A DNA stretch of 64,000 bases from the NCBI GenBank assembly GCA_038757945.1, contig JBCDGJ010000002.1, positions 24,186 to 88,185 on the forward strand, in the 5' to 3' direction. Numbering within the stretch: the first letter of the stretch is position 1; each line of letters opens with the position of its first letter. Source of the DNA: Pseudomonadota bacterium (GTDB lineage: Bacteria > Pseudomonadota > Gammaproteobacteria > Pseudomonadales > Azotimanducaceae). The notes under the pieces were generated by a model, which was given only the letters and a program-made list of their open reading frames with translations, was not told the DNA's origin and did no database searches. Of this stretch, positions 44,304-49,105 are shown piece by piece. Both the position numbers and the translations under genes were made by a program.

Positions 44304-44436
44304 GATCGCCGAACACCGCGCTGGTCCCCATAGCGCTCCCGCGCTCCTCCCGGCTAGAGGCTTCGGGACCGGTCCCGAAGCCGTGGTTCAGCAATTGACA
44401 GTCATCGTGGCGGGGCACAAAATTCGCGCCTCGCGT

Positions 44437-44513
44437 GGCTACGTAGCTCAGCTGGTTAGAGCACAGCATTCATAATGCTGGGGTCGTTGGTTCAAGTCCA
44501 ACCGTAGCTACCA
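44437..44513 (+). tRNA. tRNA-Met (CAU), elongator type (tRNA-Ile2 with lysidine-modified CAU cannot be excluded)
   Basis: GGCTACGTAGCTCAGCTGGTTAGAGCACAGCATTCATAATGCTGGGGTCGTTGGTTCAAGTCCAACCGTAGCTACCA. It folds as a cloverleaf with anticodon loop TTCATAA and an encoded CCA. Nearly identical to E. coli elongator tRNA-Met. Confidence 0.8.
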
Positions 44514-44897: not shown

Positions 44898-45294
44898 CAT
44901 GGCCACTGAAGACGGAATTGCCGCGCGCATTCGGGTGGCGCGAGAACGAGCGGGGTTGGATCCGGCAGAGCTGCGGAATCTGCTGAGCGGGCGTGGTATC
45001 GAACTGTCCAAGGCCGGGCTGCACAGGCTGGAGACTCAGGATCCAAAAAATCCGAATCTCAGACAGATCGAAGTGATCGCTTCGATCACCAACGTCTCCC
45101 CAGCGTGGATTCTCTTCGGCGAAGGATTGACCACACCGCCGGACCAGATCGGCCTGGCGATCCGGGGTCGGGTCATCGATACCATCGAACTCATGATTGG
45201 GGCGCTCGATCTCACCGCCCGCCAGGAGCAGACCATCGAGCGCTGGCTGAAGTCGGTTCGCGAGACCAAACCCACGGTAACGCAGAAACCCTAG
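44898..45294 (+). CDS. XRE-family helix-turn-helix transcriptional regulator (phage-repressor-like)
   Basis: 131 aa. An N-terminal HTH_XRE-like segment (IAARIRVARERAGLDPAELRNLLSGRGIELSKAGLHRLET...). It sits about 385 nt downstream of the tRNA-Met. Confidence 0.6.
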
Positions 45295-45603
45295 CTGCGG
45301 CTGTTCACTTTTCCTGTACTTTCGTCCACTTCAGTGTTGACAGCCAGTCAGCCGCCCGTATACTCCCGCGCCATGACTCATCAAACCGGACAACTCGGTA
45401 GCTCAATCGCTGCCACTCGGCCCTGGCGTATGCCTGCTCTGACCCCTGGTCTCGGCGGCGTATGCCCGTGCGTGATGGGTGCCTATACGCTGATGAACGG
45501 TGGCTCGCTCTTCGTTCAGGGCAGAGGCCCCATGTTCTAGCCTTCCAAGGAGTGGTGTCCTGGGGGGCTCGATGCGTCGAACCTTCCAGGAAAACTCCCA
45601 GTG

Positions 45604-45640
45604 AGAAACCCCGGATGGTTCACACCTCCGGGGTTTTTTT
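45604..45640 (+). terminator. Rho-independent terminator
   Basis: aaaCCCCGGAtggttcacaccTCCGGGGttttttt. A 7-bp GC-rich stem is followed by a T7 run on the plus strand. Confidence 0.6.
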
Positions 45641-45844
45641 GTGCCCCGGATTTGCTCTTTAACAATTTGAACCGTGTAGACGCTGGGGCGGAGTTCTTCG
45701 TTGCGAAGGGCTGCGGCCGACAGACCGTCGTGCGCGTGCGCGCGCCCGCTCCAGACGTAAGGGCTAACGGACCCCGATTGGGCCAGGCGGCTGTCTTTGA
45801 AACAGACCGTTGTTCAATTGAGGCTCAGCGTTAGCTTGAGTTTC

Positions 45845-45930
45845 GGAGAGGCATTCAATGGCGAGCTACCCTGGCTGTAGCCCAGGCGCCCGGTTGGGCT
45901 TTGTGGGTTCGACTCCTACCCTCTCCACCA
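45845..45930 (+). tRNA. tRNA-like element of type II (long variable arm) with a possible GUA (Tyr) anticodon and a non-canonical D-arm
   Basis: GGAGAGG...CCTGG-CTGTAGC-CCAGG...GTGGG-TTCGACT-CCTAC-CCTCTCC-A-CCA. Acceptor stem, anticodon stem and T-arm pair well. The D-arm does not fold canonically. Confidence 0.35.
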
Positions 45931-46470
45931 GCTTCAGAGTCATCGGCATCGCTCGAGGCTCTGAATAGCGGCCTGGCGCTGCTAACCGTCAACAACGGCG
46001 GGAAAGGAACGCTCCCACGGCGTTTCGCCGGGACAGTAGTCCCGGTCACTCCAGGCATGTTCGGCCTCCGGTAGTCCTCGGTACCGCCGGGGATAGCGGT
46101 GAAACGATGCGCGGAAGTAGCGTGGTTTACGCACCGGCGAAGGCCGGGAATGCGGGCCCGCGAAAGAACACATGGTGGTGCGCCCCGCGACACCAACGTC
46201 GTCAACCGTGAGAGGTAACGAATAGTGCAGTTCAGTGCGAGCTCCGCAGGCAAGCGCGACTGTGCAGAGGGCAAGGGTTCTGGCGTCCAGCCAGCGTCCG
46301 GGTCATCGGTCCAGTAGCCGGCAGGTGAAGGACAGTCGGCGTGTCGTGTTTCGTCGCCCGGAACGTAACGAAGCGGCTGAAGCACGCGCGTCGTAGTGGG
46401 AACAGGACTCCGCTCGGCAGTAGCGCAGCAACCAGCGGCCGGCTCAAATCCAGTGTTTCAGATCAGCGAC

Positions 46471-46545
46471 GCGGATATAGCTCAATGGGAAGAGCGTCTG
46501 ATTACCAACCAGATGACCTCGGTTCGAACCCGGGTATCCGCTCCA
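46471..46545 (+). tRNA. 75-nt tRNA with a canonical cloverleaf and an unusual ACC anticodon (Gly-decoding by anticodon). There is an A-C mismatch at base pair 31-39.
   Basis: GCGGATA-TA-GCTC-AATGGGAA-GAGC-G-TCTGA-TTACCAA-CCAGA-TGAC-CTCGG-TTCGAAC-CCGGG-TATCCGC-T-CCA. All arms fold. The anticodon-loop positions 34-36 read ACC. Confidence 0.55.
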
Positions 46546-46550
46546 TTCAA

Positions 46551-46638
46551 GGAGGCTCGCAAGGCTGGCGCGCTTATCGGTCTCGAGAATCGTGATGTCT
46601 GAATAGACGTGTAGGTTCGATCCCTACAGCCTCCGCCA
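46551..46638 (+). tRNA. Type II tRNA, probably tRNA-Ser (CGA), with an imperfect anticodon stem
   Basis: GGAGGCT...CGGT-CTCGAGA-ATCG...variable hairpin GTCT-GAAT-AGAC...GTAGG-TTCGATC-CCTAC-AGCCTCC-G-CCA. 88 nt. The anticodon loop CTCGAGA resembles that of E. coli serU (CTCGAAA). Confidence 0.5.
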
Positions 46639-46965
46639 GACTCTGGCCATCGGGTAGGAATCTGCAGGCCTACCTGCCCTGGCTACAGGCGCCGCTCGGT
46701 CCGATTCCGAGGGCGGCCACCAGCTTCGGGCTCGACGCATCGACGGCGCGGCCCAACCGTATCCGTCCGTCGCCTGCCGCAGCGCAGGACTCGCACCCAC
46801 CGGTGCTTGTATCGGTTCCAGCCCGACTCGGACCAACGAAGTTAGACCAGCAAACGACGCTCTGCGGTTCGGATTCTGATTCCGTCCGGCGCACTCACGC
46901 CTCTATCGCACTAGTGCGGTATTGCACGGTGTGTACCGAGCGCTCCGTGAGCCTCTAACTACCAC

Positions 46966-47038
46966 GGGAAATTAGCTCAGCGGGTAGAGCATCAGACTCA
47001 TAATCTGACGGTCGCAAGTTCGACTCTTGCATTTCCGA
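46966..47038 (+). tRNA. tRNA with a CAU anticodon (Met or Ile2) and a possible G1-G72 mismatch
   Basis: GGGAAAT-TA-GCTC-AGCGGGT-AGAGC-A-TCAGA-CTCATAA-TCTGA-CGGTC-GCAAG-TTCGACT-CTTGC-ATTTCCG-A. The anticodon stem and T-arm are perfect. CCA is not encoded. Confidence 0.55.
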
Positions 47039-47580
47039 CCCCTTAGCCAAAGTGGTCCCCTGGTAAAGGCGCAAGCCTGCGGTTCGAATCCGCTCCCCGG
47101 CGTGGACAACGCCTCACCGTGTTCGCCGCCGGCGGTGCTGCCAGCATGCCTTCGGGCCATCTGGCAGCACTGCAGCACGAATGCCGCCGATTAATGATCC
47201 GCCGGTTGATCCAGCGTAACGCCCGCTCGACGTCCGCCAACCCTCATGCGCTGCCTGTGCAGGTGCTGGGGGAAGGCCGCCGTCCTGCGCGCACGACGTT
47301 CGAGCAGTCGGTGCCATTCATCCGCGTCACTCCTGTGGCGGCGAGCACACTCTCTCGACGACGTTCGCTCACGAGGTGAGACGAACGAGCTCCATTAACA
47401 ACCCACAGCACCCAAAGGAGGTGATTCAGCGTGGTCGGTCTCAAACGACTGGCAGAAGCAGAACGACGGATTCTCGAGCGCAACGCTGGCCATGGACCGC
47501 ATGCCCGGCCAGCGCTCGAGCCCCGTCTGACCCAAGGCCCGTCACCGGACGGAAACACCAAAGAAGGAGGAGAACGCACC

Positions 47581-48723
47581 ATGTGGTTCACCCAGAAGTT
47601 TGTTGTGCGTAAGCACGAGCGCGGTCTCCTGTTCAAGGACGGAGACTTCCTGCAGTTCCTGGCACCGGGTACCTATCGGTACTTTGGCCTCGGGCGCCGC
47701 TACTCGGTCGAACGCTTCGACCTGTCGGTCGCCGTGTTCGAGCACCGGCTCGGCGACTATCTGGTCGAGGCTGAGGCCACTGAGGTCGAACGCCTGTTCC
47801 ATGTCGTTCTGACGCACGCCGACGAAGTTGCGGTGGTGTATCTGAACGACCGTGCCGCGGCCATACTCGGACCGGCAGAGCGCAAGCTCTACTGGAGAGG
47901 CGTTGTCCAGGTGCGGGTGGAACGTTTCGATCTCGTAGAGGGCATCGCCCTGAACGATCGGCTGACCAGGCGCCTCGTCAACGGCCGGGATGCGCGTGCA
48001 CTGGCGGTCGCGGACAAATCCGTGTTCGCACGGATCGTGCCGGATGGCCACGCGGGTCTGCTGTATGTCGACGGTGAGCTGAGGCAGACGCTCCACGCCG
48101 GCCTCCACGCCTACTGGAACGTTGCCCACACCGTGAGTGTGGAGCTCGTCGATCTGCGGGTGAGAGCGCTGGACGTCCAGGGTCAGGAGATTCTGACCAG
48201 GGACAAGGTCGCCCTGCGTATCAACGTCACCGCAACCTACCAGTACGTCGACGCCGCCAAAGCCCTGCGGGCATTCAAAGACCCGCTGGATCAGCTGTAC
48301 AAGGAGATCCAGTTTGGTCTGCGGGCGGCCGTTGGTACCCGCAAGCTCGATGAGCTGCTGGAGGACAAGTCTGCGATCGACCGCGACATCGCAGAGCACC
48401 TCAGCACGCGATTTGCTGAGATCGGCCTCAGCGTCATCAGCGTCGGCGTCAAGGACATCATCCTGCCGGGCGATATGAAAGATCTGCTCAGCAAGGTGGT
48501 GGAAGCCGAGAAGGCGGCGCAGGCGAACGTTATTCGTCGCCGCGAAGAGACCAACGCAACGCGTTCCCTGCTGAACACCGCGAAGGTGATGGAAAGCAAC
48601 GCGGTGGCGCTGCGTCTCAAAGAGCTCGAGACCCTCGAGAAAATCACTGAGAACGTCGGTGATCTCTCGGTCGTCGGTGGTCTCGACGCTCTGCTGAACG
48701 GCCTGGTAACCATCAGGTCGTAA
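47581..48723 (+). CDS. SPFH/Band-7 (stomatin/prohibitin-like) domain protein
   Basis: The start is set at MWFTQKFVVRKHERGLLFKDGDF, preceded by a GAAGGAGGAG Shine-Dalgarno. The SPFH core follows, with a C-terminal coiled coil (…LSKVVEAEKAAQANVIRRREETNATRSLLNTAKVMESNAVALRLKELETLEKI). Confidence 0.8.
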   Translation: MWFTQKFVVRKHERGLLFKDGDFLQFLAPGTYRYFGLGRRYSVERFDLSVAVFEHRLGDYLVEAEATEVERLFHVVLTHADEVAVVYLNDRAAAILGPAERKLYWRGVVQVRVERFDLVEGIALNDRLTRRLVNGRDARALAVADKSVFARIVPDGHAGLLYVDGELRQTLHAGLHAYWNVAHTVSVELVDLRVRALDVQGQEILTRDKVALRINVTATYQYVDAAKALRAFKDPLDQLYKEIQFGLRAAVGTRKLDELLEDKSAIDRDIAEHLSTRFAEIGLSVISVGVKDIILPGDMKDLLSKVVEAEKAAQANVIRRREETNATRSLLNTAKVMESNAVALRLKELETLEKITENVGDLSVVGGLDALLNGLVTIRS

Positions 48724-49105
48724 TTCGGCCCCTGGGAGGGCGTACTCTGCGCCCTCCCGGTTTTTATCTGTTCGCACTCGCAAGCGATCGACGACGGGCT
48801 TTCAACCGGAAGAAGCGCACCCGACGGTTTCTTGCCGCTGGCGCATCGGCCTGAGTGCCAGGATTCGCACCCCGCGCAACCAGCGGAGGAGCCCAGAGAT
48901 TCACACCCCTTTGAGGTGCGGCTACCCGAAATAATGGCTCGGAGCCCAATCAACTGCTTAGAGTTGACCCCGGCAAGTGCCCAGCGCAGAGTACCGCGCT
49001 GGACAGAACGCAAAGGTTGCAGTTCCAGCACTCGACACGAATCTTCGCCGGTATTCGAGGCAATCAGCGCTCTCAGCGAACCATTGCCGCCGAGGAACCC
49101 ATTAC

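Follow-up and report, generated by a model that had tools for sequence, protein, structure and literature searches.

The 64,000-nt stretch of contig JBCDGJ010000002.1 analysed here (the window; all positions below are window positions) carries between 45845 and 47105 a crowded group of tRNA and tRNA-like genes, and we analysed this region together with its surroundings. tRNA genes were called by ARAGORN, RNA families were assigned with Rfam models (thresholds: 29 bits for the tRNA model, 47 bits for transfer-messenger RNA (tmRNA), and 150 bits for GOLLD, RF02032), and protein domains with Pfam. ARAGORN finds four tRNA genes, all on the plus strand: tRNA-Met (44437-44513), tRNA-Gly(acc) (46471-46545), tRNA-Ser(cga) (46551-46638), and tRNA-Met(cat) (46966-47040). 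The original prediction, made by manual folding, had placed an array of tRNA and tRNA-like genes here, with a tRNA-Met and an XRE regulator just upstream; all of these are indeed present, and the Tyr-like element and the 'fragments' that it listed besides the three ARAGORN tRNAs are real. We consider it probable that the 45.8-47.1 kb region is the eroded middle of a cassette of about 3.9 kb (ca. 44.9-48.8 kb) that is made up, in this order, of an XRE regulator, a sigma-70 promoter, a leaderless 55-codon open reading frame (ORF) with an attenuator-like terminator, a boxA, the array with a GOLLD RNA, and a gene for an SPFH protein. Its features, and the tRNA-Met gene outside it, are the following:

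44899-45294, plus strand: gene of an XRE/Cro-type helix-turn-helix (HTH) regulator, first of the cassette (Pfam HTH_31 and HTH_26)
45337-45364, plus strand: sigma-70 promoter, TTGACA-16 nt-TATACT (11 of 12 positions match the consensus)
45373-45540, plus strand: leaderless 55-codon ORF (ATG 8 nt after the -10 box; no Shine-Dalgarno sequence)
45538-45640, plus strand: attenuator-like leader (segment A, 45539-45550; B:C hairpin, 45558-45591; terminator, 45603-45640)
45653-45665, plus strand: rrn-type boxA UGCUCUUUAACAA (13-mer equal to the E. coli rrn boxA oligonucleotide)
45762-45838, plus strand: pseudo-tRNA-Thr (broken T-stem, no CCA, anticodon loop CUUUGAA)
45845-45930, plus strand: type-II tRNA-Tyr(GUA) of an array family (short D-arm, G37, encoded CCA)
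45931-46333, plus strand: structured 5' domain of a GOLLD RNA, ca. 400 nt (95-pair consensus; homology to L002)
46334-46395, plus strand: degenerating GOLLD hairpin P14 (first 63 positions of RF02032; aligns with the start of the Rfam GOLLD matches)
46396-46468, plus strand: remnant of the GOLLD-linker tRNA (anticodon arm deleted; alignment with 10 linker tRNAs)
46471-46545, plus strand: tRNA-Gly(ACC) (ARAGORN; Rfam 62.5 bits; A31-C39 mismatch, U73, encoded CCA)
46551-46638, plus strand: type-II tRNA-Ser(CGA) (ARAGORN; encoded CCA)
46645-46722, plus strand: pseudo-tRNA-Leu (A5-C68 mismatch, anticodon loop CCUGGCU without U33, CCA kept)
46762-46836, plus strand: pseudo-tRNA-Val (aligns with the tRNA-Val of L017, L004 and L014; anticodon loop and stems destroyed)
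46848-46960, plus strand: spacer before the last tRNA, containing two small hairpins (conserved in L017, L018, L004 and L014)
46966-47040, plus strand: tRNA-X, with anticodon CAU in the window (ARAGORN; Rfam 66.7 bits; G1-G72 unpaired, no encoded CCA)
47055-47125, plus strand: three-hairpin element (six-locus alignment; compensatory changes in the flanking hairpins)
47431-48723, plus strand: gene of an SPFH/Band-7 protein (Pfam Band_7, E=3e-29; alternative start ATG at 47581)
48729-48766, plus strand: terminator-like hairpin and U-run (sequence reading; no match to related loci beyond it)
44437-44513, plus strand: ordinary tRNA-Met of elongator type, outside the cassette (ARAGORN; Rfam 70.4 bits)

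Within 1.3 kb the window array thus comprises the three ARAGORN tRNAs, the tRNA-Tyr and four pseudo-tRNAs. All units are on the plus strand, neighbouring intact ones lie 5-6 nt apart, and a single promoter-like site lies upstream of the array and none within it. Four tRNAs are still foldable (Tyr(GUA), Gly(ACC), Ser(CGA) and the CAU tRNA) while the Thr, GOLLD-linker, Leu and Val units are pseudo-tRNAs. The pseudo-tRNAs Thr, Val and GOLLD-linker, the structured stretch 45931-46470, the leader, and the link to the SPFH gene had no place in the original prediction.

Related loci were collected in two ways. Seven contigs from metagenome-assembled genomes (MAGs; L001-L007, from Woeseiaceae or unclassified Gammaproteobacteria) were retrieved through the XRE protein (44899-45294), and 15 metagenome contigs (L008-L022) were added by a scan with a conserved motif of the 5' domain. 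The cassette is present in 21 of these 22 contigs, at non-syntenic sites. XRE homologues (59-71% identity, tblastn) occur in 12 related loci (L001-L007, L012, L013, L017, L019 and L022), and a tRNA array or GOLLD-type RNA follows in 11 of them. Four of the seven MAG contigs have long co-oriented arrays downstream of XRE (17 tRNAs in L002, 25 in L004, six in L006, and four in L007); in L001 and L005 the first array tRNA is visible before the contig ends, and L003 has the XRE gene without an array. The 25 tRNAs of L004 occupy 4.9 kb, L020 has 21 in 2.8 kb, and L021 has 20. XRE and SPFH genes are also found on several of the 15 metagenome contigs, and they are the only genes common to the window and the related loci, all other flanking genes being different. 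Homology with the relatives begins at the XRE gene and stops at the terminator-like hairpin after SPFH (48729-48766). The cassette has evidently spread in a patchy, non-vertical manner, by horizontal transfer, and its carriers appear to be marine gammaproteobacteria of the Woeseiaceae type (a label taken from L004 and L006) that hold it at differing chromosomal sites. We read the window region as a cassette copy because each of its elements aligns with an array tRNA at the matching place in the array order. Homology then indicates that an array of about 20 tRNAs has been reduced here to four with a cloverleaf fold, and that a deletion has taken the GOLLD hairpins P15-P27, sparing the 5' domain and P14. 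At L003 6001-6396 the XRE homologue (70% identity) is directly followed by a convergent gene and no tRNA array, which would reflect either loss of the array or a regulator able to exist alone.

Comparison with the orthologues sorts the non-canonical features, which the original prediction had listed together as marks of atypical tRNAs, into two kinds: traits common to the orthologues, and changes or plain pseudogene decay in this copy alone among those compared. To judge from the alignments, the former include the short D-arm of the tRNA-Tyr, U27-U43 in the tRNA-Ser and the open 1:72 position of the last tRNA; the latter are the UCC-to-ACC and UGA-to-CGA anticodon changes and the broken arms. 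The Tyr element is not called by ARAGORN and scores 25.5 bits with the Rfam tRNA model, under the threshold, but it forms all 23 consensus pairs of a seven-member tRNA-Tyr(GUA) family in which seven pairs covary. Its type-II structure and GUA anticodon had been correctly noted; the supposedly non-folding D-arm is in fact a 3-bp stem (U-G, U-A, C-G) with a 6-nt loop, common to the seven orthologues, and is a conserved family trait rather than a defect. A tmRNA (RF00023) at 45845-45930 was considered and rejected: the 21-bit match joins only the tRNA-like ends of the model, pair 3:70 is A-U and not G3-U70, ARAGORN finds no tmRNA, and the orthologues are tRNA-Tyr.

Bacterial tRNA-Gly normally has the anticodon GCC, UCC or CCC, and the glycine identity set of the E. 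coli type comprises G1-C72, C2-G71, G3-C70, U73, C35, and C36. By sequence reading, the tRNA-Gly(ACC) of the window holds all of these, with A at position 34 and A-C at 31:39. The 75-nt tRNA seen by eye does have the anticodon loop UUACCAA, and in addition the A31-C39 mismatch. An array tRNA-Gly(UCC), that of L018, comes closest to it (58 of 75 positions), with identical acceptor stem ends and discriminator, and the window gene is best read, most simply, as a U34-to-A derivative of such a tRNA-Gly(UCC). With its identity nucleotides intact it could be charged, if expressed. The tRNA-Ser(CGA) is identical at 77 of 88 positions to the tRNA-Ser(UGA) of L004, relative to which it carries U34C and A37G, and its anticodon looks like a single-base change from the orthologue's UGA. 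Its best Rfam score is 32.3 bits against the tRNA-Sec model, and the orthologues behave likewise (37-39 bits). The 4-bp anticodon stem reported before results from U27-U43, a mismatch that recurs in the orthologues of L004, L002 and L010.

The last tRNA of the array, here named tRNA-X, has a conserved cloverleaf and in every case stands before the SPFH gene. Its seven orthologues have 20 common pairs, 10 of them with compensatory changes, and the G1-G72 mismatch suspected in the window is real and has counterparts, position 1:72 being unpaired in six of the seven. Their anticodons take five different forms (CAU, CAU, GUU, UAG, ACU, GUU, and UGU). The orthologues lie at L017 2545, L009 2437, L018 377, L004 8644, L014 3128, and L006 8283. 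Initiator tRNA-fMet is marked by a C1xA72 mismatch and three G-C pairs at 29-31:39-41. We rejected this identity for 46966-47040, which has G-G at 1:72, the stem UCAGA/UCUGA with one G-C pair among 29-31:39-41, and orthologues with other anticodons.

Among the decayed units, the pseudo-tRNA-Thr aligns with the tRNA-Thr(UGU) of L001, L002, L004, and L005, and neither ARAGORN nor Rfam calls it. The same holds for the pseudo-tRNA-Leu, which matches the 78-nt tRNA-Leu(UAG) of L020 and L021 at 59 of 78 positions and the Leu(CAG) of L006 at 56 of 78. The two 'fragments' near 46.70 and 47.08 kb are therefore not the orphan tRNA 3' ends for which they had been taken: the former belongs to this decayed tRNA-Leu and the latter to the three-hairpin element. 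The linker tRNA, a remnant in the window, is orthologous across loci and its anticodons differ (AGC, GUU, GAU, GAA, CCA, and CUU); copies lie at L002 7732-7803, L006 7299-7374, L010 1214-1287, L011 445-518, L016 697-770, L018 1516-1591, L020 1815-1888, and L021 3983-4056. Among the close relatives L010, L011, L020 and L021 the few differences in the aligned linker tRNA include the last anticodon base (GAU or GAA). The array tRNA-Leu genes (L006 8063-8141, L004 11489-11728, L020 144-386, and L021 2312-2554) measure only 77-79 nt; their D-arm is enlarged and their variable region short, in place of the long variable arm that is usual in bacterial tRNA-Leu. The array tRNA-Arg has the anticodon GCG in seven loci (L002 9057, L004 10435, L006 7900, L010 128, L014 4917, L020 822, and L021 2990) and the usual bacterial ACG only in L017 (2846). 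At L020 474-566 and L021 2642-2734 ARAGORN reports a 93-nt 'tRNA-Ile(UAU)' in which the anticodon arm is followed by an unusually long insertion.

The 540-nt spacer 45931-46470, flanked by tRNA-Tyr and tRNA-Gly, is identified as a GOLLD 5' domain with P14 because the homologous stretches of L002 and L006 lead into GOLLD matches. Positions 45923-46401 are 85% identical to 477 nt of L002 (7254-7730) that adjoin the RF02032 match of that contig, and 78% identical to the stretch of L006 that adjoins its own. These matches reach 131.6 bits in L002 and 147 bits in L006 (threshold 150), each with a tRNA in the linker. The RF02032 3' region is present in nine of the 15 metagenome contigs, with scores of 126-159 bits across the relatives. 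No RF02032 match is found in the window (E<=10 over 43-49 kb and 45.64-47.14 kb, E<=0.05 window-wide), and a hidden 3' region was rejected for the 64 kb, the sequence after the linker tRNA being fully accounted for by tRNA orthologues. Hairpins P15-P27, which follow the linker tRNA in the relatives, are thus absent from the window copy. A 176-aa ORF on the minus strand (45855-46385) was likewise discarded, as L002 has no ORF of at least 90 aa over the same RNA and the covariation is of the RNA type.

In an alignment of 16 sequences the 5' domain has a 95-pair consensus with 96.2% of the cells paired, against 88.3% in shuffles and 31-44% in slid controls, and 43 pairs have double changes against 24 in shuffles; none of 500 shuffles reaches either observed value. 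The window copy keeps 93 of the 95 consensus pairs, the same level as the full-length GOLLDs. Its P14 is changed at 7 of 46 invariant columns, compared to 10 of 217 in the 5' domain (columns from nine full-length GOLLDs; Fisher p=0.016), and the conserved P14 loop CAAAA has become CGGAA. Since L14 touches P21 of a neighbouring 3' domain in cryo-electron microscopy (PMC12990946), a relaxed constraint on P14 after the loss of P15-P27 is a reasonable reading of these small numbers. The 3' region is also missing in L007 and in the clade of L004, L008, L009 and L015, which has a shortened 5' domain. These 5' domains without RF02032 3' region lie at L004 7552-7901, L009 1334-1683, L015 1560-1926, L008 800-1165, and L007 1760-2200. 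In the L004 clade 23 pairs vary, nine by double compensatory and ten by one-sided compatible changes, with only four broken; pair changes that are mostly compensatory or compatible argue that the structure is maintained there without the 3' region. In L007 16 pairs of the 5' domain are broken, a possible sign of decay.

Upstream of the array, both promoter hexamers are invariant in seven of seven aligned loci. Repeated GTTC/GAAC half-sites stand just upstream of the -35 box (window 45295-45336; L002 6385-6430) and are candidate XRE operators; those of L002 read GAACGCGTTC and GTTCCG-N5-CGGAAC, and the window versions are partly degenerate. Across the loci the small ORF has its ATG 8-9 nt past the -10 box and runs for 48-57 codons, and its start, stop and frame are retained in seven loci despite indels and low identity; it is presumably coding. 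It has no match in NCBIfam or PADLOC; for the set of XRE, SPFH and small ORF, NCBIfam gives only distant similarities to DicA and HflK/HflC, and PADLOC nothing.

Both hairpins of the leader that follows are conserved with covariation in 11 loci, and the intrinsic terminator (45603-45640) has a GC-rich stem and a run of six to seven U across loci (seven in the window). Segment A, directly after the stop codon of the small ORF, is complementary to B, and folding of 40-nt prefixes yields the A:B pairing at -13 to -18 kcal/mol; the stable final fold consists of B:C and the terminator. If A:B is held in place, C instead pairs with the terminator's 5' arm, with one and the same topology across nine of nine loci, and L007 shows one compensatory GGACC/GGUCC variant in this pairing. 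The leader 45373-45640 (L002 6466-6750 and equivalents) could therefore be a translation-sensing attenuator before the tRNA array, which fits the behaviour of the one L-array that has been studied, the trn operon of Anabaena, which is silent until translation is impaired (PMC8421152). An Rfam His_leader match (25.8 bits, E=0.49), like those to NsiR1 and further weak ones at 45.53-45.64 kb, is not significant; all of them owe their scores, which stay far under the thresholds, to the terminator hairpin.

The boxA that follows agrees with the consensus GCUCUUUAACAA at the head of a long untranslated unit. Its core GCTCTTTAACAA (45654-45665) recurs, identical over its 12 nt and in the corresponding position, in six of the seven genome loci (L001, L002, and L004-L007) and is invariant in seven aligned sequences; together with flanking bases, 16 nt are those of the E. 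coli rrn boxA-spacer oligonucleotide (PMC2724277). A GU-rich stretch comes next, and then a conserved long-range stem (window 45683-45758) ahead of the first tRNA.

At the other end of the array, SPFH orthologues (53-74% identity) lie within or end the arrays of L004, L006, L009, L014 and L017. The window gene has two in-frame pairs of strong Shine-Dalgarno sequence and start codon, AAGGAGGTGAT-GTG at 47431 and GGAGGAGAACGCACC-ATG at 47581, and its start is uncertain because L006 is without the ca. 150-nt segment between both candidates. In the putative 5' region of the SPFH transcript stands the three-hairpin element. One of its hairpins, GCGG-UUCGANU-CCGC, resembles a T-arm, is invariant and comes after GGUAAAGG; the element may mimic a tRNA elbow. 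Copies are found at L004 8725-8800, L006 8376-8430 and L014 3222-3296, and also in L017 and L009.

From these parts we propose that the whole unit would be made as one long untranslated precursor from the conserved promoter, with the small ORF and the alternative hairpins gating read-through of the terminator: a ribosome at the stop codon of the small ORF would favour termination, and stalled or absent translation would favour read-through. The boxA would recruit Nus factors and make RNA polymerase resistant to Rho across the array, as in rRNA operons and CRISPR arrays, and RNase P and RNase Z would cut at the tRNA and tRNA-like units, freeing tRNAs, the GOLLD-derived RNA and the SPFH mRNA.

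Several observations weigh against parts of this reading. The small-ORF region folds unusually well as RNA (z=-4.6) and could be a structured leader instead of a coding sequence. Imposing A:B does not remove the terminator from the full-length minimum-energy fold, so that the antiterminator is weak and we regard the attenuator as tentative. The intact 5' domain could simply reflect a recent deletion. It has no similarity to the first ca. 480 nt of the env-38 GOLLD (nhmmer at maximum sensitivity), a homology that we had to discard, and the name 'GOLLD 5' domain' comes from position and contiguity in the relatives; the lack of similarity does fit a 5' region described as 'less conserved' than the 3' region (PMC12286853). 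Transcription, processing, charging and Nus dependence, and likewise attenuation and any role of the 5' domain, are deduced from sequence. Finally, the tRNA set in view is that of 64 kb of the genome, so that the array tRNAs may at most be called supernumerary-looking.

The cassette resembles several known systems. Horizontal spread and poor expression are known for long tRNA arrays ('tRNA array units' or 'L-arrays'), and in Anabaena translational stress induces the array (PMC8421152). Those of Acidithiobacillus, the Anabaena trn operon and Mycobacterium (PMC4758250, PMC8421152, PMC5966550) likewise consist of dense, co-oriented, supernumerary-looking and partly atypical tRNAs with patchy occurrence, non-syntenic flanks, one upstream sigma-70 promoter, a presumed regulator, a protein gene within the array, and a proposed link to translational stress. 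The definition of an L-array (at least 20 tRNA genes, at least two per kb; PMC4758250) applies to L004, L020 and L021 but not to the window remnant, in which only 4-5 tRNAs are foldable. The associated genes here are XRE and SPFH rather than a homing or HNH endonuclease, and a leader with an rrn-type boxA, a leaderless ORF and a terminator is not described in these three papers. In comparison with GOLLD RNAs of Mycobacterium tRNA arrays and with the nanocages of env-38 and S. agalactiae solved by cryo-electron microscopy (PMC12286853, PMC12990946, PMC6582537), the relatives are also inside arrays, nearly all carry a tRNA in the linker and have the same two-domain layout (a 5' part of ca. 400 nt, then the 3' region). 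The window, L007 and the L004 clade, however, lack the 'universally conserved' 3' region and keep the 5' part, and the hosts are marine gammaproteobacterial chromosomes with no phage context found. The boxA elements of rrn operons (bound by NusB/NusE/NusG/SuhB; PMC2724277) and of CRISPR arrays, which they shield, untranslated as these are, from Rho (PMC7665894), likewise combine the exact UGCUCUUUAACAA with a GU-rich stretch at the head of a long untranslated, heavily processed unit. Ours, known from its sequence, heads a tRNA/GOLLD array instead and sits just after an intrinsic terminator. With ribosome-dependent attenuators, both his/trp leaders and small-ORF types that react to inhibited translation, the leader has in common a short ORF whose stop abuts A, mutually exclusive A:B and B:C pairings, and the pairing of C with the arm of a U-tailed terminator; it differs in that the ORF is leaderless, has about 55 codons and no obvious run of regulatory codons, and the antiterminator is weak.

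How such a cassette came to stand here, and what it is for, allows other explanations. The original prediction favoured an integrative-element or phage setting. A tRNA island of a prophage or integrative element inserted beside tRNA-Met would suit the position of the cassette ca. 390 nt downstream of that gene, the non-syntenic flanks of related cassettes, and the phages and prophages from which GOLLD and long tRNA arrays are typically reported (PMC12286853; PMC6582537). Yet no integrase, recombinase, phage or conjugation genes occur between 34 and 61 kb (ca. 15 kb either way) or around L002, and no second copy of the tRNA-Met 3' end is found in the whole window, even with three mismatches, which led us to reject an attachment (att) site or island boundary at this gene. 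A phage or plasmid origin was rejected as well: 2.9 million viral contigs gave no match to the pattern of the 5' domain, and blastn of 45300-47440 against phage and plasmid collections returns only single tRNA-Gly or tRNA-Met-like matches. The GC content of the cassette (0.61-0.63) is close to that of its flanks (0.60-0.65). The neighbours are ordinary chromosomal genes not common to the relatives (SelO, AI-2E transporter, DUF1989, cyclase, CobW, and ThrRS), tRNA-Met has a promoter-like site of its own (44395-44423), and no tRNA lies upstream of XRE in L001-L006 (at least 4.7 kb upstream read; for L007 only ca. 0.5 kb is available). An inserted island seems unlikely. The contrary idea of an ordinary housekeeping tRNA operon mis-folded by eye has on its side that three units are confidently called tRNAs, but it is scarcely credible given an anticodon, ACC, outside normal bacterial sets, four pseudogene units, an embedded structured RNA of 470 nt, and relatives that hold the cassette in different genomic contexts; in excluding such an operon the original prediction was right, as the homologous XRE-linked loci have long arrays (17-25 co-oriented tRNAs) and flanks that are non-syntenic with the window.

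Two further explanations concern function. The suggestion that the ACC species would be an unusual decoder did not find support, the gene being best read as a one-base derivative of an array tRNA-Gly(UCC) and not as evidence for a selected new decoder. Selection of tRNA-Gly(ACC), and perhaps tRNA-Ser(CGA), as special decoders (an A34/I34 glycine tRNA or a nuclease-resistant replacement) could draw on the clean, high-scoring cloverleaf (62.5 bits), the retained glycine identity nucleotides, the codon usage of the window genes (GGU 27% of Gly codons, UCG 25% of Ser codons), and anticodon-loop changes of phage tRNAs that are known to evade anticodon nucleases (PMC10264068). We nevertheless hold it to be quite improbable: no second ACC copy was found and the nearest relatives in L018 and L004 are UCC, the anticodon stem has the A31-C39 mismatch, four pseudogene remnants share the array, one of them immediately upstream, and related arrays now and then contain other A34 anticodons (AGC, ACU, AAG), of which two occur at the two positions with hypervariable anticodons. 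Less remote, although still tentative, is that the conserved core is a cargo, namely an autonomous GOLLD 5' domain and the SPFH protein, with the tRNA units serving mainly as RNase P/Z punctuation or structural modules, which would explain why tRNAs are freely lost and anticodons change. Consistent with this, a 5' domain without 3' region persists in three lineages (the window, L007, and L004/L008/L009/L015) and has only four broken among the 23 variable pairs of the L004 clade; the linker tRNA and the tRNA before SPFH have hypervariable anticodons; half of the tRNAs in the window are dead, yet its promoter, boxA, small ORF and SPFH gene have stayed intact; and cryo-electron microscopy shows GOLLD to have distinct 5' and 3' domains, with the cap formed by the 5' domains (PMC12286853). 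On the other hand, most relatives have about 20 well-formed tRNAs for most amino acids, which argues that decoders are selected there, the anticodon loops of tRNA-X are mostly canonical (U33, purine 37) as in working tRNAs, and the 16 broken pairs of L007 indicate that at least one copy without 3' region may be decaying. A joint version is possible to a similarly limited degree. In it the 5' domain is an autonomous functional RNA, for example a homo-oligomer that would form a ring or cap independently of the 'universally conserved' 3' region; the cassette as a whole acts as a stress operon of the chromosome, switched on by the translation-sensing attenuator of the leaderless ORF, with the rrn-type boxA carrying transcription through; and the tRNA modules with drifting anticodons (the GOLLD-linker tRNA and the tRNA before the SPFH gene) are structural or processing parts and not decoders.

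If the region is an eroded cassette copy, as we think probable, the ACC and CGA anticodons, like the mismatches and fragments, are remnants and family peculiarities of a tRNA array that has spread horizontally, and do not point to new decoding. The cassette suggests several new leads: the leader with boxA and attenuator, natural GOLLD derivatives without 3' region, and tRNA-shaped modules with drifting anticodons. The locus bears on the function and regulation of GOLLD RNAs, which form nanocages and are usually discussed as phage cargo; the cassette puts the GOLLD/tRNA array in a compact chromosomal setting with a regulator, a possible attenuator, an antitermination signal and a conserved SPFH gene. 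Copies reduced to the 5' domain are in effect natural deletion mutants that still evolve by compensatory changes, and they could reveal the role of each GOLLD domain. The boxA, in turn, suggests a possible general rule: just as rRNA operons and CRISPR arrays do, tRNA arrays that are long and untranslated would depend on Nus factors for their protection from Rho.

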